Source: an uncultured bacterium (lineage in GTDB: Bacteria > CSSED10-310 > CAZUFC01). Taken from it: a DNA stretch of 64,000 nt. The DNA is taken from NCBI GenBank assembly GCA_964619725.1, contig CAZUFC010000016.1, positions 33,563-97,562 of the forward strand, written 5' to 3'. The notes beneath the pieces are model-generated. The model was not told the DNA's origin and did not search any database. It saw only the letters and a program-made list of their open reading frames with translations. Position 1 is the stretch's first letter. Each line of letters opens with the position of its first letter. Below, in pieces: positions 2,136 through 47,566 of this stretch. Made by a program: the position numbers and the translations under genes.

Positions 2136-4151
2136 TCAAGTGCAGCGTCGAACGGTGTTTATGGCTAACAGACAGGCGAGGAAAAGGGTAAGGAGAGCTA
2201 TACCTGCGGAAGATGATGCGGGGATCGAAGGGGTCGTGGGAATCAGTGTAGGCGTAGGCGTAGGAGGCGGAGGAACCAGAGATGCGCTCATATAGTGGAA
2301 ACCCATATCCGCCATTTCCGAATCATATACGCTGTCCGTTCGAGTAGTGAACTGACTTAAACAATGAGTTTTATACAATCCCTCGAAGCAGACCCAAAGG
2401 GCATCCCGATCGCCCCCGTCGATGCACGGACTGTCCAGAGTTTGTCCCGCAGCCGTGTGACTCAGATAATAATCTCCATTCGTGCCTGCGGCGAATAAAG
2501 GGTCCTCGTTGATGTTGCCTGTGCCCGTATATCCCTCCTGAATGTCGGAATATTGGACAATTGGAATAGGAAATCCATGGACGAAAATTCCGTCGGGAGA
2601 GTTATTCCAAAAGATGGTATTGGAAATTTGAGGGCTTGCATTAAAAGAATATAGACCGCCGCCGTCCAGCCCCTCAGACGTCCCGTTTCCGGCGAATGTG
2701 CAATTGAGTATTTCCGGTTCGGATTCGAAACAATATATAGCGCCGCCGGAACTGAAACTGTAATTGTCGTAAAACAGACAATTAGTTATATTCGGCGTCG
2801 TTTCTTCATAACAAAGAATGGCTCCGCCGCCGTATTGAGCGAAATTAGCGGAAAAAATGCAGTTTGCCACGGCAGGCGAACCGCTTTCCAGGTAAATCCC
2901 GCCGCCGTAATCAGCCATCCCGTTTTTTATCGTTAATCCTCTTATGATCGAATCCTGAGTTTCGCCGTTGTGAAAATGAAATCCTCTGCCCTGAGACTCG
3001 CAATCGATAACGCAATAATCGGGTCCGTATTGAGAGGCGACAGTGATGGCTTTTCCGTGAAAATCTAAATTATAATTGCCGTTGCCCGAGTATGTTCCGT
3101 TATGGATAAGTACGATTTCACCCGGATCAGCAGCATTAATGGCTCCCTGAATGGTGTTGTAATCTGCAGGCACGTGTTTGATTATCCCTGTCTTATAGAA
3201 ATGAGCGCCCATGTCTACCGTTCCCCAATCCCGCCCGAATTCATCATACCTCGTCGTCAGGTCGCTCAGACATAACTCAGGCGCGCTTCCCGGCAAACAT
3301 ATCTCGGAGGCGAGGCTGCTTCCGGTATCCAGGCACGGACTGTTGAATGACTGCCCTGCAATGGTTTGACTCAGATAATATCCGCCGCATGGACCTGCGG
3401 CGAATATAGGATTCTGATCGATATTGCCGGCTCCTGCGAATCCGCCCTGAACGTCTGAGTAGGTGATCTGCGGAACCTCATCCCCGGCTATGGTTACGCC
3501 TGCGTTATCCCAAATAATGCAGTTTTCCAGTACCGGCGAGGAATTGAGTATGCTGTATACAGCGCTTCCTTCGCTTCCAGCGGAATTTTCCGCTACAGTG
3601 CAATTGTAAAATTCAGGTTCGGCGTTGAAATAACAGGCAATAGCTCCGCCCGAATCCGAATAGTTGTTCGTCGCTATACAATTAATAAATGTCGGAGAGC
3701 TTTCAATACAATATATTCCCCCTCCTTCGTACGTAGCCGTATTTCCTTCGATTCTGCATCCCCATATCACCGGATCGGAATAATCCACATAAAATCCTCC
3801 GCCCCAGGCGCTGGAACCGTTCCTTACGGTAAAACCCCTGATTATAGTATCCGACTGCTCAGCATCATTGATGTAAAATGACCGGCCGCTACCTTCGCAA
3901 TCTATAATGCAGGTGAGAAATCCGTTCGCGGACATAACCGTTATCGCTTTACCCTTCAATTCGATCTCTTTGTTGCCCGTTCCCGTATATGTTCCGTCGG
4001 AAACCAGAACCGTGTCGCCGTTCATTGCCGTATTTATGCCTGCCTGAATCGTCGGTTGATCTTCAGGAACATGGATCACCGCCCCGAAAGCCGTGCCGGC
4101 TGTTATCATTACCGCTAAATTTAAAATATAAAAAATCTTATACTTTTTCAA
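2136..4151 (-). CDS. Secreted protein with two right-handed beta-helix (pectin-lyase/Pmp-like) modules, Pro/Thr linker and IPTL-CTERM-like tail
   Basis: Likely TTG start at 4151 after AGGGG; signal peptide ending AFG-A; duplicated VP.D..TIQ..IN.A..G..V....GTY.G.GN starts; GGGIY/GGAI.C repeats; C-terminus IPASSSAG + hydrophobic helix + RR. Confidence 0.8.
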   Translation of the reverse strand: MKKYKIFYILNLAVMITAGTAFGAVIHVPEDQPTIQAGINTAMNGDTVLVSDGTYTGTGNKEIELKGKAITVMSANGFLTCIIDCEGSGRSFYINDAEQSDTIIRGFTVRNGSSAWGGGFYVDYSDPVIWGCRIEGNTATYEGGGIYCIESSPTFINCIATNNYSDSGGAIACYFNAEPEFYNCTVAENSAGSEGSAVYSILNSSPVLENCIIWDNAGVTIAGDEVPQITYSDVQGGFAGAGNIDQNPIFAAGPCGGYYLSQTIAGQSFNSPCLDTGSSLASEICLPGSAPELCLSDLTTRYDEFGRDWGTVDMGAHFYKTGIIKHVPADYNTIQGAINAADPGEIVLIHNGTYSGNGNYNLDFHGKAITVASQYGPDYCVIDCESQGRGFHFHNGETQDSIIRGLTIKNGMADYGGGIYLESGSPAVANCIFSANFAQYGGGAILCYEETTPNITNCLFYDNYSFSSGGAIYCFESEPEILNCTFAGNGTSEGLDGGGLYSFNASPQISNTIFWNNSPDGIFVHGFPIPIVQYSDIQEGYTGTGNINEDPLFAAGTNGDYYLSHTAAGQTLDSPCIDGGDRDALWVCFEGLYKTHCLSQFTTRTDSVYDSEMADMGFHYMSASLVPPPPTPTPTLIPTTPSIPASSSAGIALLTLFLACLLAINTVRRCT

Positions 4152-4440
4152 AATGTCACCCCTTTTCAACAGGCATCTTTTCCGCTCGATCCCTGCTTTA
4201 TCAGTATACCGGCCCGTAATACAATTTTCAAACTGTAACGGCTGTTTATATTGATTCTTCGTCAACTCCAGGGATAATCAACGGTTCTTCATCATTTCGT
4301 CGAACGAATCTACGCACGTAGCTTTCCTGCCTGTCAACCTCATATTTCTTTTGAAAACGGACCATTCCTCTCTGAACAAATATACCGAAAACCCTGCTGA
4401 GAAATATCTCTCTGAAAGCCTCCAAAGCTTTTGCCGGCGG

Positions 4441-5394
4441 TCAAGGTCCGTAACTGAAATCGATGACTTCCAGGTTACTGATGAAATTAAAATTTCCGGG
4501 GGCCGTTAAAACAGAATAGAAATAGAGCCCGGTCAGACTGTCCTGGACGTCAGGCCACTGGAAAGGTCCCAATACGTCGAATGACGTCATTCCGATTCCT
4601 AAATTCCTTCTCTCGAATTCCAGCATTTCAGTCCATCCGGGATACCAGAAATATAATCCCACTACTTCCAGGACGCAGTAATAATCAGATTCTACCGGGT
4701 AGGGGTTATCATTCATAACTTCCGCAAAAAGATGGAATTCATCGCCGGGTTGAAGCTGAGAATCGGTGAGCGTCAAATCCAGAGTCATGTTTTCAAAGGT
4801 TCCTGTCGGGGTTGAAGTCGGTTGAGGAGTATTTTCCGACGTGGGAACAGGGGTTGGAGTGGGTGATCCCCCGCCCAGCAAATCCTCGACTATGGCGACC
4901 ATCGTGTCCATGTCATCCTCAGTATAACCGGAATGCTTGTATTGAATGACCATATCCTGGTCGATAATGAAATTAGACGGATAAATCGGTACGACGTAAC
5001 TGTTTTCAACCTCTTCGGTACCCTGCAAAATCGGAAACGTTAAACCGAAGTCCCTGGCCCAATCCTGCAAATCATCGACCGTCGGAGGGTCCCCGCTTGC
5101 GTTTTCCATCAGTATCGTAAAAACCATTACTCCCTGGTCCTTGTAAGGAATCCATATTCTCGACTCAAGCTCCGGCGCCTCCTGCTGACATGGGCCGCAC
5201 CTGACGGTTGAAAAGTCTATCACAATGACGTCTCCCCAGTAATCATAGAGCGTGTAAAAGGACTCGTCATTCCCCAGCAATGTAAAATCAGTCGCCGTAT
5301 CGCCGACGTTCAGAGCGCTGCAAACCGTCAGACCGCTTAATAAAACGACAGCAAACATTACTACGCCCCGCAGGCATGTTTTTCTATGAAACAT
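4441..5394 (-). CDS. Secreted TlpA/AhpC-TSA-type redoxin (CGPC) with PT linker and uncharacterised C-terminal domain
   Basis: Signal peptide, VGDTATDFTL, DFSTVRCGPCQQEAPEL, YPSNFIID (cis-Pro loop); GGAGG SD. Confidence 0.85.
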   Translation of the reverse strand: MFHRKTCLRGVVMFAVVLLSGLTVCSALNVGDTATDFTLLGNDESFYTLYDYWGDVIVIDFSTVRCGPCQQEAPELESRIWIPYKDQGVMVFTILMENASGDPPTVDDLQDWARDFGLTFPILQGTEEVENSYVVPIYPSNFIIDQDMVIQYKHSGYTEDDMDTMVAIVEDLLGGGSPTPTPVPTSENTPQPTSTPTGTFENMTLDLTLTDSQLQPGDEFHLFAEVMNDNPYPVESDYYCVLEVVGLYFWYPGWTEMLEFERRNLGIGMTSFDVLGPFQWPDVQDSLTGLYFYSVLTAPGNFNFISNLEVIDFSYGP

Positions 5395-5483
5395 CTCTTC
5401 TATTTCCTCCCTTTATAGTTTTATCCTGGAATTTCTGGAGATAGTCCCGCTATTCGTAAATGAAGTTCATTCCTTTCCCTGTA

Positions 5484-6452
5484 TCAATACCCGTATCCGA
5501 ACTGAATAACCGAAACGTCATCCAGAAATTCGAACGTTCCCTGCTCGGTTACAGCCCCATAAAAAAACAGGCCGTTAAGTCGATCCTGAACATCGGGCCA
5601 GGTGAATTGAAGAATGTCGAGAGTTCCCGTACCCATGACGAAAGTCGTCAGCTCATGAGATATTTCCTGAGTCCATTGGGGATGCCAGAAATAAGCTCCC
5701 AGAACGTCCAATACGACATAAACGTCGGCCTGGAACAATTCCAGCGGATTGTAATATTCTGCCGTAAGATCGAAATAATCACCCGGTTCCAGGAAATCGT
5801 CCGTCAACTGTAATGTGAAATTAAACTCATCGGCCGAAGATGTAGGCGTTATCGTCGGCGTCTCCGTCGGAGGAGGAGTATGCGGCGGGGTGGGCGTCGG
5901 CGTATATGAAGGGACAGGCGTCGGGGTTTCCTCACCCAGCAGGTCCTCAATAAAATCGATTACGGGTTGCCAGTTCTGAGGCAATCCTACTATTTTCCAG
6001 GCGATGATCATTTGCTGATCAATAATGAAATTCGTCGGGTAGGCCGGTATACCGTAAGTGATGCCCACCAGGTCCGCGGCCTGAAGGACGGGAAAGGTCA
6101 CTCCGCCCATATCAGCCCAGGTCTGAAGGTCTCCGAGAGACGGCTGATTGCCCTGCGCATTCTTTAACAAAATACAAAAAACCTGTACGCCCTGATCTTT
6201 GAATCTCTGCCAAATTTCTGCCTCCAACTGAGGCATTTCCTGACGGCAGTATCCTCAGTTCCAGGTCGCGAAATTGATGAAAACTACATCACCCGTGTAA
6301 TCATATAATGTATAATATGACCCGTCATGTCCCAGCAGAGTGAAATCCGCGGCAGTATCGCCTTCATCCAATCCTGCTGAAACCCCGCAAACCGTCACCA
6401 GGGCAAAAAATACCCACAACAAAATCATTCCCTTGATTTTTAAATTACTCAT
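5484..6452 (-). CDS. Selenocysteine-containing secreted TlpA/redoxin (UGYC), 322 aa, with PT linker and C-terminal domain
   Basis: ORFs 6255..6452 and 5484..6236 share a frame and are separated only by TGA at 6257-6255 (FATWN-U-GYCRQEMPQLE), which aligns with the first Cys of FSTVRCGPCQQEAPELE in the adjacent paralog; SECIS-like hairpin follows. Confidence 0.9.
6207..6249 (-). promoter_or_regulatory. Bacterial SECIS-like stem-loop
   Basis: Minus strand: CTGCC-GTCAGG-AAA-TGCCTC-AGTTG-GAGGCA-GAAATTT-GGCAG; the apical loop starts 25 nt after the UGA and has G at loop position 2. Confidence 0.75.
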
Positions 6453-6685
6453 TTACACTTTCCCTTCATGGTTTTTCATTTCTGTTCTTCCTTAAAGGAA
6501 ATTCAACCCTCATATAAATTATTGCATTATCCCATGAAAGTCAAATCTCAAACGGATTTCCGCACATCCGAAGCCTTATTTTGCTGCTGCAGCAGCGTTG
6601 CTCGCGCCGATGCAACACTCCTGCGAATCATTATGCGCCGTCACGAAAGCTTCAAAAACATGCGGCGCTTTGCTGACAGCCCCGT

Positions 6686-8254
6686 TCACCGTTCAGTCTT
6701 TCGTCTTAAATAGTCTTCAACGACTTGTATAACCTGGTCCGCCTCCATGTCCTGGAACATCTCATGCCCCGTTTGCTTGAACCACACCAGCTCCTTGTCC
6801 TCAGAGCCGATTTTTTCCCAAATTTCCTGAGCTGCCTTCGGATCGACCACATTGTCCTTGTGGGACTGCAGAATAAGCACGGGAACTTTTATTTCGGGCA
6901 GCAGCTTCTCTATTTTGCCTGTGTATTCATAAAGCGAAGCAAATGCGTCGATAGGAAACTTCTCGTAATTCCTGTTGTTGACGGACAACTCCTTACTGTT
7001 GAAAGAATTAGGCGAACTCCAGTACTTGACGAATTTTTTCATGACAGGAACAATCCTGGTCAGGGGATTCTTGAATCGAAGGGCCGGAGCCGCCAGGACC
7101 GTACCCGCTGTCTTGTCGGGATACTTTGCCGCCAACTCCAGTGCGACCAGTCCCCCCATAGACAAACCCACCACAAATACCGAATCATGCTTTCTTAAAA
7201 GTCGCTTCATGGCCGCTTCCGCATCCTCATACCAATCCTGATGCGTTACACCCTCCAGGTCCTGATAACGAGTTCCATGTCCTCGTAACAGGGGCATCAA
7301 AAAATCAAATCCGTTTTGAGTCAGCATGGGAGCCAGACCGTCAACCGTTTTCAAACTGGAAGTAAAACCATGCAGTACCAGTACTCCAGGCATCTTGTTA
7401 TCTCCTCCCTTCCGTTCTATCTCTTTCGTCGGTCCCCACGGCGGATCATCCAGGGGCACGCTTATGGGAATATAATTGCGGGAATGGTCTACAAGGCTGG
7501 ATATGGATTTCATTATCCTCTTCGTCGCGCTTTTCAATTTACGCTTGTCTATCTTCCCGACGGAATCATATAAATCGGAAAATTCTATGGGATTGCCGAA
7601 TCTCACCGTAATCGGTATCGGCTTTATTAACGGAAATTTCTCCATTCGCGGATAATATTCCGGCGGAAATGACTTGCCGGCTCCCGATATCCCTACTGGA
7701 TATACAGGCGCCCTGGCCTCAATCGCTAATCTTACCGCACCGGTCTTCCCCGGTAATAATCCCGTATCATACTCAACGGCCGAACGCGGAACATCCTCTT
7801 CTCCGGGTATCGTCCCCTCAGGAAAAATCGCCACTGCATCTCCACCCTTTAATGCCTCCCCTATAAGACGCATTCCCTCAGGATCGCCCCCTCTCCGAAT
7901 GCGCAAACTGTCGAACAGCTCCAATACATGCCGTAAAACAGAAAATTGATACAGCATGTCCTTCGTGATAAACCTCAATCTTCTCGGAGACACCGCTCCC
8001 AGTATCTGCGCGTCAAACCAGCTCTGATGATTGGACGCCAGTATAAAACCCCCCTCCTTCGGAATTACTTCTGAATTTACCACCTCTATTTGATGATATA
8101 CGTTGAAATAACTGCCCAGCATCGTTTTCGCTGTATTGGACAGCAGCCCCTTGACCGTCTCATATAATCCCAGTCGCTTCAATAAGTTGAGCTCCGCTTC
8201 AAGAAACATATCTATCGGCCGCGTCATCCTGTTCAGCATTTCGTAACGTTCCAT
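6686..8254 (-). CDS. Fusion of PlsC-type lysophospholipid acyltransferase (N-terminal) and YvaK/Est30-like carboxylesterase (C-terminal)
   Basis: NHQSWFD (HxxxxD) and IFPEGT; then LHGFTSS, GLSMGG, KDNVV, GHEM. Confidence 0.88.
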   Translation of the reverse strand: MERYEMLNRMTRPIDMFLEAELNLLKRLGLYETVKGLLSNTAKTMLGSYFNVYHQIEVVNSEVIPKEGGFILASNHQSWFDAQILGAVSPRRLRFITKDMLYQFSVLRHVLELFDSLRIRRGGDPEGMRLIGEALKGGDAVAIFPEGTIPGEEDVPRSAVEYDTGLLPGKTGAVRLAIEARAPVYPVGISGAGKSFPPEYYPRMEKFPLIKPIPITVRFGNPIEFSDLYDSVGKIDKRKLKSATKRIMKSISSLVDHSRNYIPISVPLDDPPWGPTKEIERKGGDNKMPGVLVLHGFTSSLKTVDGLAPMLTQNGFDFLMPLLRGHGTRYQDLEGVTHQDWYEDAEAAMKRLLRKHDSVFVVGLSMGGLVALELAAKYPDKTAGTVLAAPALRFKNPLTRIVPVMKKFVKYWSSPNSFNSKELSVNNRNYEKFPIDAFASLYEYTGKIEKLLPEIKVPVLILQSHKDNVVDPKAAQEIWEKIGSEDKELVWFKQTGHEMFQDMEADQVIQVVEDYLRRKTER

Positions 8255-45803: not shown

Positions 45804-46120
45804 AAAAAATTTGGCAGGAACTACGTAGGGTTGACTGGGTGGGGTTCTCATTCTTTTAATAACAAATCTCATTTGGAATTGTCAAGGAAAAAAATGACCG
45901 AATTAAAGATTTTTTTTTAGAAAAGCGCCGACTTGATGAATTTTCGAGGGAATTTCTCAAAAAGACGGCCCGAATTCCTGCCTGTCAATTTTATCGGTTG
46001 ACGTGTGGATGTCGGTCAGGACTTTTGACGTTTGAAAAAAACGATCTTTTTGCTAAAATAATTCAAGGAATATCAGGTGAGCATGTCGAGTAATTTGTGA
46101 GAAGCAAGAAAGGAGTGGCT

Positions 46121-47566
46121 ATGGACAGGAAAATTATTCTGATTATCTTGACGCTTATCGCTGTTTTCATATCGTATGGAGCGTCATACGCCGGTCTTCC
46201 GCCTGGTTTCGAGGTCTTCTTTAATTATGCTGTTGATCGCGATCCGGTTGACCTGGAGTCGGGACTGGCAGATTTGATTCGAGAAGCGGAAAGCGAGATC
46301 AAAGCTTCTTTGTATTGTTTAACTTCTGCGGCAATCATCCAGGCTTTTTTAGAAGCGAGCGAGAAAATAGGACCGACCGGCATAAGGATAATCGTGGACA
46401 GCGAACATAGCGATAATGAAGCTCTTACGCCCCTGTATGAAGCCGGAATCAGCATAATAGACAACAGTTGTCCTCCTGGAAGTTATCCTGGCGGGATAAT
46501 GCATAATAAATTTGTAGTTACGGATTCTCGTCATATCTGGACAGGTTCTTACAACACGACGTACAACGGAGCCTACCTAAACAGCAATAATTCAGTGTTG
46601 GTGGACGATGTCGATCTGGCATCGGAATACGAGAGCGAATTCGACCAGATGTGGGGAACAGTCCCTGAAGGCTGCACGGGTTCTAAATTCGGAACGGCTA
46701 AAGATGCGCATGAGAATAATGAGTTCCTGATCGGCGAAACGCGGGTTGAGGCATATTTCGGACCTCCGGATGCTTTGCACAGTGCATTTCTGGAAGCGAT
46801 AGAGAATGCGGAAAAATCGATTCATTTCTGCATCTATTATTTTACTGATTTCGAGATGGCTCAAGCGATAGCAGAAGCAGCGAGGTCCGGCATAGAGGTC
46901 AAAGGAGTAATGGATGATGCCGGGGCTACCGATTTCGGCACGCAATTCAATTATCTCGATCATTTTGATGAAGTAGAAATGAGGAATTACAAGCAGGACG
47001 TCTGTCCTCACGCCCGCACTCTCCATCACAAGTTCATGGTAATCGACCAGGGGATGCCCGAACTGGACCCCATAGTGATAACCGGCAGCGCCAATTGGAC
47101 TTCGAACGGACAAAATCATAATGACGAGAACGTGCTGTTCATTTACAGCAAGGAGTTTGCTGACGTTTATTATGAGGAATTCGTCAGATGTTTCCATGGA
47201 ACGAATGAGGAGGAAGAGCCCCTTACAACGCTTTATTTAAATCAATCTTCTTATTCTGGAGGGGATGAGTTCAGACTTTCTGTAAAGGTCCAGAACACTT
47301 GTGATTTTTTGGCGTTAGACCTTTATGTTCTTTTAGATTGCGGGTTGGATACGTTTTGGTACTGGCCCGGATGGGAGACTGAACCGGATTGGTTGTCTTA
47401 CGATATTGAAGGAAACGGGGGCAAGTATGAAAAAACGATATTAGAATTCAACATGCCTTCCAAACTTTCTCCTGCAGGTCCTTTTCATTTTCATGCGGGC
47501 ATATTCAGCCAGGGGACTGTTGAACCTTTAGGTCCCTTTTTTTCCATTCCATTTTATCTGGAATAA
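46121..47566 (+). CDS. Secreted phospholipase D-family (two HKD motifs, nuclease/PLD-like) protein with the shared C-terminal domain
   Basis: AAGGAG SD before ATG 46121; MHNKFVVTD...TGSYN and LHHKFMVID...TGSAN; TTGAAA-16-TAAAAT (extended -10 TG) promoter at 46032-46059. Confidence 0.88.
   Translation: MDRKIILIILTLIAVFISYGASYAGLPPGFEVFFNYAVDRDPVDLESGLADLIREAESEIKASLYCLTSAAIIQAFLEASEKIGPTGIRIIVDSEHSDNEALTPLYEAGISIIDNSCPPGSYPGGIMHNKFVVTDSRHIWTGSYNTTYNGAYLNSNNSVLVDDVDLASEYESEFDQMWGTVPEGCTGSKFGTAKDAHENNEFLIGETRVEAYFGPPDALHSAFLEAIENAEKSIHFCIYYFTDFEMAQAIAEAARSGIEVKGVMDDAGATDFGTQFNYLDHFDEVEMRNYKQDVCPHARTLHHKFMVIDQGMPELDPIVITGSANWTSNGQNHNDENVLFIYSKEFADVYYEEFVRCFHGTNEEEEPLTTLYLNQSSYSGGDEFRLSVKVQNTCDFLALDLYVLLDCGLDTFWYWPGWETEPDWLSYDIEGNGGKYEKTILEFNMPSKLSPAGPFHFHAGIFSQGTVEPLGPFFSIPFYLE

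Follow-up and report, generated by a model that had tools for sequence, protein, structure and literature searches.

Gene Structure and Redoxin Domain

The window analyzed here (the whole stretch of 64,000 nt from an uncultured bacterium) carries on its minus strand, at positions 5484–6452, a candidate selenoprotein gene for an exported redoxin, referred to below as the query gene. Under translation table 11 it is called as two open reading frames (ORFs), one of 65 aa (6255–6452) and one of 250 aa (5484–6236). An earlier sequence-only reading had taken these for a single frame broken by one TGA exactly at the first Cys of a CxxC motif, and this was borne out. The 322-codon frame contains a single internal stop, the TGA at 6257–6255, which is codon 66; the AhpC-TSA domain match spans this stop, and the Cys of a neighboring paralog is aligned with it. 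With U standing for selenocysteine (Sec), the residues around the TGA are FATWN-U-GY-C-RQEMPQLE.

The features of the query gene and its paralog are as follows:

5484–6452, minus strand: complete candidate selenoprotein gene, 322 codons plus the terminal TGA (5484–5486); two ORFs under table 11
6375–6452, minus strand: predicted Sec-type signal peptide (Sec export pathway), residues 1–26, recognized by eye from a Lys-rich start, a hydrophobic core and VSA followed by G
6255–6257, minus strand: UGA codon 66, probably read as Sec, first position of UxxC (reading frame, paralog alignment, homologs, two assemblies)
6246–6248, minus strand: TGC codon 69, putative resolving Cys of UxxC (reading frame)
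5997–6362, minus strand: thioredoxin-fold redoxin domain (Pfam AhpC-TSA, residues 31–152), TlpA/ResA/DsbE-like (profile and structure-sequence matches)
5835–5930, minus strand: Pro/Thr-rich linker, residues 175–206 (sequence; similar linkers in many other ORFs with the tail domain)
5487–5834, minus strand: C-terminal beta-sandwich (tail) domain, residues ~207–322 (tblastn, iterated profile, AlphaFold2)
4441–5394, minus strand: adjacent Cys-form paralog (RCGPC) of the same length and architecture, next gene downstream, without a comparable hairpin after its Cys codon (−2.8 kcal/mol)

Two Pfam families were matched across the TGA: AhpC-TSA (PF00578) over residues 31–152, with an E value of 1.7e-17 and 64 bits (cut-off 26), and Redoxin (PF08534) with 46.7 bits (cut-off 26.6). 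The best match by sequence to a solved structure was 3kcm (E 9.3e-12, residues 31–171), whose WCPPC motif was aligned with U66-G-Y-C69 of the query. A conserved Pro-Thr/Glu-x-Phe-(V/I)-Ile-Asp stretch was likewise aligned with structures of the TlpA/ResA family.

The NCBIfam cut-offs were not reached for ResA (62.5 vs. 170), TlpA (27.8 vs. 230), DsbE (26.7 vs. 123) or StoA (24.4 vs. 210). Because these scores lie far under the cut-offs, the query is not regarded as an ortholog of any of the four. Judged by its profile matches, the gene is a member of the broad TlpA/ResA-like (AhpC-TSA) family and not an ortholog of any named member.

The paralog is 48% identical to the query over 316 aligned columns, and the first Cys of its RCGPC motif stands opposite the TGA. 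A Cys was found at the same place in protein P0003, which is 49% identical to the query. Pseudogene-like decay of the downstream frame was looked for and none was observed: codon 66 is followed by 256 codons without a second lesion, the conserved positions of the family are kept to the last residue, and the C-terminal domain is intact, ending at the same point as in the paralog.

At the N-terminus, two Lys residues precede a 13-residue hydrophobic core and the sequence VSA/G, with CSA/L at the matching place in the paralog and TEA/A in P0003. The cleavage site was judged by eye; the N-terminus looks like a signal peptide that would be cut by signal peptidase I.

Gene callers return exactly the two products of the interrupted frame, and both are present in public collections (P0009 and P0002), as would be expected if the locus held two true genes, one for a 65-residue secreted peptide and one for a 250-residue protein starting from the ATG at 6236. 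However, the split falls inside a single thioredoxin-fold domain, the downstream product has neither a signal peptide nor the catalytic residue, and full-length Cys homologs are colinear over the break. Two separate genes are considered very improbable.

Verification of the TGA Codon

Logan contigs from four runs of one microbial-mat study were compared over positions 5300–6700. The contig of run X1, possibly the source of the assembly, covered the whole of this stretch with zero differences, and a 175-nt contig from a different sample (run X3) covered 6135–6309, also with zero differences; no variant was listed. TGA was present in both assemblies, and none of the codons TGC, TGT or TGG was seen at the site.

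Any of these three would be the true codon if the stop were an error of sequencing or assembly, a reading to which the fragmented metagenome bin (344 contigs) and the low depth at the locus (7.8 and 2.6) lend some weight. Since the depths are low, the runs belong to one study and X1 may be the source assembly, the agreement gives modest support with weak independence. The contigs of the two samples are nevertheless identical across the site, and the hairpin downstream of it (see below) would be unexpected under such an error, the probability of which is regarded as very small.

Selenocysteine Machinery and Other Candidate Selenoproteins in the Genome

The genome that holds the window (G000) comprises 9.17 Mb in 344 contigs, with a completeness of 90.9% and a contamination of 6.5%. 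The Sec machinery was searched for in it, and tRNA-Sec, selA, selB and two selD genes were all present above the cut-offs. The tRNA-Sec gene scored 78.6 bits with Rfam and was reported by ARAGORN as tRNA-SeC with the anticodon tca. The scores were 377.5 bits for selB (cut-off 242), 551.2 bits for selA (cut-off 268), and 395 and 392 bits for the two selD genes (cut-off 125), one of which contains an in-frame TGA.

C204:671–1600 and C59:48405–49325, plus strand: two selD genes (profile matches in G000)

The lineage-specific tail domain (see below) occurs in one or more ORFs on every one of the contigs with tRNA-Sec, selB, selA and one selD. The guanine-cytosine content of these contigs is 0.465–0.477, compared to 0.461 for the window contig. 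On the basis of the tail domain and of base composition, these contigs are attributed to the same organism and not to the 6.5% contamination. A protein with a DsbD_TM match, of relevance for reductant supply, was found on contig C28 (164.7 bits).

As a side observation, the selD with the in-frame TGA is itself a selenoprotein candidate. The other selD is free of stops and lies inside a 747-residue open frame, so that it may be a fusion protein.

A search of the read-through six-frame translation of G000, with a profile made from the homolog segments discussed below, yielded three more UxxC genes, with the motifs WRDTUGGC (C56), WRDGUSGC (C25) and SLTUPYC (C125), and two peroxiredoxins with TGA at the peroxidatic position:

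C56:34178–36406, minus strand, and C25:45106–47787, plus strand: long-form exported Sec redoxin candidates (read-through profile search)
C125:5477–6361, minus strand: fourth UxxC candidate (SLTUPYC), of a more distant thioredoxin-fold family; hairpin loop CGGGU, spacing 16
ORFs C25|+|0|19519 and C71|-|1|8341: TGA-peroxiredoxin candidates (FTFVU), TGA at the peroxidatic position; 7-bp hairpin, loop GGUC, spacing 17

In the C56 and C25 proteins, a signal peptide and a UxxC redoxin are followed by ~450 residues of middle region, then by a Pro/Thr linker and a tail domain of the query type. Long-form relatives with one TGA, in frames of 600–840 residues, were observed several per genome in the phylum. 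No in-frame TGA was found in the FlpD/MvhD (6 matches) or formate dehydrogenase alpha (2 matches, one frame) sequences of G000.

Exchange of Sec and Cys Among Homologs

The redoxin domain, read through the stop, was searched against 41 genomes including G000, and many matches with exactly one internal TGA were obtained, chiefly in genomes of the same phylum. Loci were fetched from public genome contigs, and 29 segments allowed the placement of a (C/stop)xxC motif at the query's column. The interchange of Cys and UGA, which the sequence-only reading had proposed as a check, was evident at this exact column: TGA was found in 17 of the 29 homolog segments and TGC or TGT in the other 12. Besides members of the same phylum, the TGA forms included records labelled Latescibacterota, Deltaproteobacteria/Myxococcota, Thermodesulfobacteriota and Nitrospirota.

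When 1.84 billion cluster representatives were searched exhaustively with phmmer, the short redoxin-linker-tail architecture was found in a handful of clusters. CxxC is present in seven full-length short-form members (P0004, P0005, P0006, P0008, P0010, P0011 and P0033) and in P0003. Three clusters (P0007, P0012 with P0153, and P0025 with P0155) are called only from 8–26 residues past the CxxC column, and such late starts are what a gene caller yields after an in-frame stop.

A profile of the N-terminal parts up to the CxxC column was searched against a collection of 5.8 billion proteins for short proteins. Six of the 59 short hits, with the query's own fragment excluded, end exactly one column before CxxC (P0156–P0160 and P0166), at 43–62% identity to the N-terminal fragment of the query. 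One of them, P0157 (65 aa), is probably the first half of a gene whose second half is P0007 (234 aa), as both are from the Logan source and each is recorded on a 1572-nt contig. Most of the other 53 hits end 4 or 5 residues later, in peroxiredoxin-type motifs, and look like truncated Sec-peroxiredoxins.

Dozens of called proteins of 61–79 residues (P0161–P0214), with AhpC-TSA or Redoxin matches, were seen to end in motifs such as ...DFSPT or ...AFTGG, immediately ahead of the peroxidatic position. Such proteins probably represent the N-terminal halves of selenoprotein genes, recorded as truncated through mis-annotation.

In a tree of the C-terminal parts, the split forms were scattered among the Cys forms, and the query was sister (97/97) to the neighboring paralog and P0005, both of which are Cys forms. 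In the redoxin-domain tree, the query fell into a four-member clade, three members of which are Cys forms (support 98/92), and the sister group of this clade, weakly supported (82/79), consisted of 12 members from the same phylum, all with TGA. The family swaps Cys and Sec repeatedly, and such exchange is described in PMC13188914 as usual for thiol oxidoreductases.

Hairpin Downstream of the UGA

The sequence-only reading had also pointed to a hairpin resembling a bacterial Sec insertion sequence (SECIS) just downstream of the stop. Two structures are considered:

6219–6235, minus strand: SECIS-like upper hairpin UGCCUC/AGUUG/GAGGCA, 6-bp stem, −8.5 kcal/mol alone; loop begins 25 nt past the UGA
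6201–6254, minus strand: whole predicted stem-loop in the minimum-energy fold; outer helix CUGCCG/UGGCAG, 6249–6244 paired with 6212–6207

The spacing of 25 nt was counted from the A of the UGA to the start of the loop. The same fold includes a short basal helix beginning immediately 3' of the UGA. For the 73 nt beginning just before the UGA, the folding energy was −23.2 kcal/mol (z −3.43), a value reached by 0 of 200 shuffles.

An outer helix of CTGCC with GGCAG had been proposed, and an outer helix is indeed present in the fold; however, it uses the second GGCAG (6211–6207). The first GGCAG overlaps the inner stem and cannot coexist with it, and pairing with this copy was ruled out.

In the bacterial SECIS model, as published in PMC13188914, the loop has 3–9 nt, the upper stem 4–16 bp, and the UGA-loop spacing is 16–37 nt; one of the first two loop nucleotides is a G, often with a G or U after it, and the energy is −7.5 kcal/mol or lower. 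The query hairpin (loop AGUUG, stem of 6 bp, spacing of 25 nt, −8.5 kcal/mol) lies within all of these limits, so the claim that it is SECIS-like stood with respect to the general model.

When 3,999 Cys codons from long G000 ORFs served as controls, 1.25% were followed by a model-conforming hairpin of at least the query's stability, and among 1,000 versions of the query stretch recoded synonymously, 1.1% contained an equally good one. In a looser test on the control sites, a perfect stem of at least 6 bp was found in 2.6%, an energy of −20.9 kcal/mol or lower over 63 nt in 4.3%, and both in 0.15%.

Four of the five other G000 candidates had hairpin energies from −7.0 to −11.4 kcal/mol; in the remaining one, C56, the stem is interrupted, and the simple measure gave −2.2. 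When the folding energy of the whole 63 nt was compared with synonymous recodings, the query was in the 1.6% tail, and the five positive controls were at 14–40%. Because the positive controls were unremarkable, this measure was judged to have little power, and the model-constrained hairpin was relied on. An Rfam scan of 5900–6500 (E up to 10) returned four chance-level matches to unrelated families and no SECIS family.

Selenoprotein or Pseudogene

Taken together, 5484–6452 is very probably one functional selenoprotein gene, encoding an exported TlpA/ResA-like (“Prx-like”) thiol:disulfide oxidoreductase in which UGA codon 66 is read as Sec.

The offset of the hairpin is the main doubt on this reading. 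The query loop begins at 25 nt, 8 nt further out than in any of the 22 comparison SECIS candidates, in which the spacing was 16–18 nt (16–17 nt in 5/5 other G000 candidates and 16–18 nt in 17/17 fetched TGA homologs). The five G000 candidates have loops GGC, GGUC or CGGGU at a spacing of 16–17, compared to AGUUG at 25 in the query. A GGAGGCUCC hairpin core common to 15 of the 17 TGA homologs is missing from the query; it is encoded by a Glu-Ala-Pro motif, in place of which the query has Glu-Met-Pro, with its hairpin 8 nt further on. In E. coli, the minimal hairpin reported in PMC8659212 lies 11 nt from the UGA, whereas that of the query starts 19 nt from it.

Further points on the same side came from the homologs. 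In both trees the nearest relatives of the query are Cys forms, so its TGA is a change private to its own lineage. The six short public proteins that stop at the redox-active column were compared at the level of protein records. The searches for close orthologs likewise provided none near enough to test the conservation of TGA and hairpin: the 65-residue fragment as sole query retrieved only itself, a word-based protein search gave only this fragment and P0003, and matches reached at most 46% identity over short stretches in public genome contigs and at most 42% in metagenome contigs.

With regard to the GGAGGCUCC core itself, it was observed, with the loop GGC 17 nt past the UGA, in several phyla (L023–L031, L034, L042, L043 and L045–L048) and in 0 of the 12 Cys homologs. 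One TGA homolog from another genome (L022) has the identical loop AGUUG, but at a spacing of 16.

A rival reading is a recent nonsense pseudogene, in which a TGC-to-TGA change killed one copy of a duplicated Cys redoxin, decay of the downstream frame is still to come, and the hairpin is either coincidental or disabled by its spacing. The nearest relatives (the neighboring paralog, P0005, P0003 and P0004) are all Cys forms, as such a history would predict, a functional copy adjoins the query gene, and the spacing departs from 22/22 comparison candidates.

Against a dead gene stands, first, the position of the stop. Only one in 134 of the possible single-base changes to a stop in the query gene hits codon 66, and among the control Cys codons just 1.25% have an equally good hairpin after them. 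TGA also stands at this column in 17 of the fetched homologs, six close public homologs stop at it, and the 256 codons past the TGA show no second lesion. Because of the chance of one in 134 for codon 66, combined with a factor of about one in 80 for the hairpin, and because no other lesion is present and the family has TGA at this column again and again, a functional selenoprotein gene was favored and a pseudogene was judged unlikely.

C-Terminal Tail Domain

The sequence-only reading had described the C-terminal domain as anchor-like. This description did not hold, since the domain is predicted to be a soluble beta-sandwich that ends 221 ORFs of G000. Within the window, the domain (~125 residues) is present three times: at 5487–5834 (minus strand), at 4444–4836 (minus strand), and at the end of the ORF 46094–47566 (plus strand).

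By tblastn, matches to the domain were found all over G000, and an iterated profile search located it in 221 table-11 ORFs, which have a median length of 710 residues and are spread over 123 of the 344 contigs. The domain ends within five residues of the stop in 204 of these 221 ORFs. Many have a Pro/Thr/Ser-rich stretch just before the domain.

No Pfam or NCBIfam match was obtained for the tail domain (22 members, E up to 1). AlphaFold2, run with a 22-row alignment, gave a confident eight-strand beta-sandwich (pLDDT 93.1, pTM 0.80). Foldseek returned generic relatives only, with TM ~0.5: the FnIII-like domain of GH3 glucosidases, CARDB, and complement MG domains. A search of the ESM Atlas with the tail domain gave only unnamed clusters (<0.9).

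At E up to 1e-5, the domain was found in 11 of 14 genomes of the phylum (G000 included; 10 of the 13 others), with 57 to >150 matches in each. At E up to 1e-30, it was found in 0 of 107 sampled genomes of other phyla. Models of the Type IX secretion system, TIGR04183, SprA (TIGR04189) and PorV (NF033710), had no match in G000, although the controls for the first two were also silent.

As modeled, the tail is a soluble beta-sandwich and no membrane anchor; it forms a C-terminal module that exported proteins carry throughout the lineage. It would most naturally be taken to sort or attach proteins in the cell envelope, and in its distribution it looks like the cargo tag of an undescribed envelope-sorting or attachment system. 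The combination of export, Pro/Thr linker and C-terminal domain, which had been called unusual, turned out to be usual for the phylum, because the larger Sec redoxins there bear the same tail.

The motif (T)RTDE...D.G.VDMGYHY was noted directly before the Pro/Thr linker in many of the tail ORFs (e.g., on C264, C52, C317, C130, C40 and C133). It may mark the end of a shared upstream domain, perhaps a beta-helix.

Proposed Mechanism

In the proposed mechanism, the stem-loop just downstream of the UGA would recruit SelB with Sec-tRNA(Sec), giving a product with the active site Sec-Gly-Tyr-Cys at the predicted start of the first helix of the thioredoxin fold. The protein would be exported by the Sec pathway and its signal peptide removed. 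The redoxin domain would then hang by the Pro/Thr linker from the beta-sandwich domain, whose probable role is to sort the protein to the cell envelope or attach it there, as it would do for ~220 other proteins.

By analogy with the family, the selenolate of Sec66 would act as the nucleophile and attack a substrate disulfide or an oxidized sulfur, and a selenenylsulfide would be formed with Cys69 as the resolving residue. The oxidized enzyme would be re-reduced from the cytoplasm, plausibly via a DsbD/CcdA-type membrane conduit encoded in the genome.

A more specific scenario was also considered, in which Cys was recently and independently converted to Sec within the Cys clade, with a new SECIS 8 nt further out, and the protein is displayed on the surface via an undescribed sorting tail. 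This scenario is tentative and, as a whole, rather doubtful. If true, it would mean a lineage-specific secretion or attachment pathway that shows selenoproteins outside the cell.

Comparison with Known Systems

The review PMC13188914 and the tables of PMC1794560 list Prx-like thiol:disulfide oxidoreductase selenoproteins with UxxC/UxxU (PF00578) and thiol-disulfide isomerase-like UxxC selenoproteins (cd02966). As predictions, selenoproteins of the AhpC-TSA/TlpA type with UxxC are established, and the query belongs with them. Its fusion to an unnamed tail, its offset SECIS-like hairpin and the number of exported Sec redoxins in the phylum are the new elements.

With the Prx-like selenoproteins, compared by published description, the query shares the AhpC-TSA family, a UxxC motif with Sec first, Cys homologs and frequent Sec/Cys exchange. 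It differs from them in the Pro/Thr linker, in the tail that has no Pfam or NCBIfam family, and in the hairpin spacing (25 vs. 16–18 nt).

ResA, TlpA and DsbE (CcmG) proteins (e.g., 3kcm, 3gl3, 4nmu and 1st9) resemble the query in the thioredoxin fold, predicted export, the active-site column and a DsbD-type partner in the genome. In contrast to them, the query has Sec in place of the nucleophilic Cys, NCBIfam scores below cut-off, and no cytochrome c maturation genes adjoining it.

The long-form Sec redoxins (C56 and C25, with relatives in G003 and G005–G013) resemble the query in having a signal peptide, UxxC redoxin, Pro/Thr linker and tail, and they form its sister clade with weak support (82/79). 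Unlike the query, they have a middle region of ~450 residues and, as their SECIS, the GGAGGCUCC hairpin at a spacing of 17.

For the tail only, an analogy may be drawn with the C-terminal domains of Type IX secretion (TIGR04183), as both are small beta-sandwiches at the C-terminus of many diverse exported proteins. The query genome has no TIGR04183, SprA or PorV match, which is weak evidence given the silent TIGR04183 and SprA controls, and the structural matches of the tail are generic.

In terms of annotation, the query gene currently appears as two meaningless products. At least five other genes of G000 suffer from the same error, as do dozens of short public “proteins” that stop at a redox-active column. 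For selenium biology, the locus adds a probable exported UxxC redoxin from an uncultured microbial-mat phylum with several such enzymes per genome, and a natural test of the UGA-SECIS spacing tolerated by one SelB. A larger question beside the finding is the C-terminal domain on ~220 proteins, seemingly the cargo tag of an envelope-sorting system.

Neighboring Genes

A promoter and terminator scan of 4200–6800 gave nothing above chance level. The neighbors of the query gene encode a beta-helix protein, an acyltransferase-hydrolase fusion, a SurA-like chaperone and a MoxR ATPase, and they give no hint of the substrate.

Two further genes on the minus strand follow the redoxin pair. The more distant one (1156–2106) is a 316-residue ORF without any Pfam match, located after the beta-helix gene. 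The beta-helix gene itself (2136–4265) lies directly downstream of both redoxin paralogs and encodes a 709-residue right-handed beta-helix protein with repeats of the Chlamydia-PMP type.

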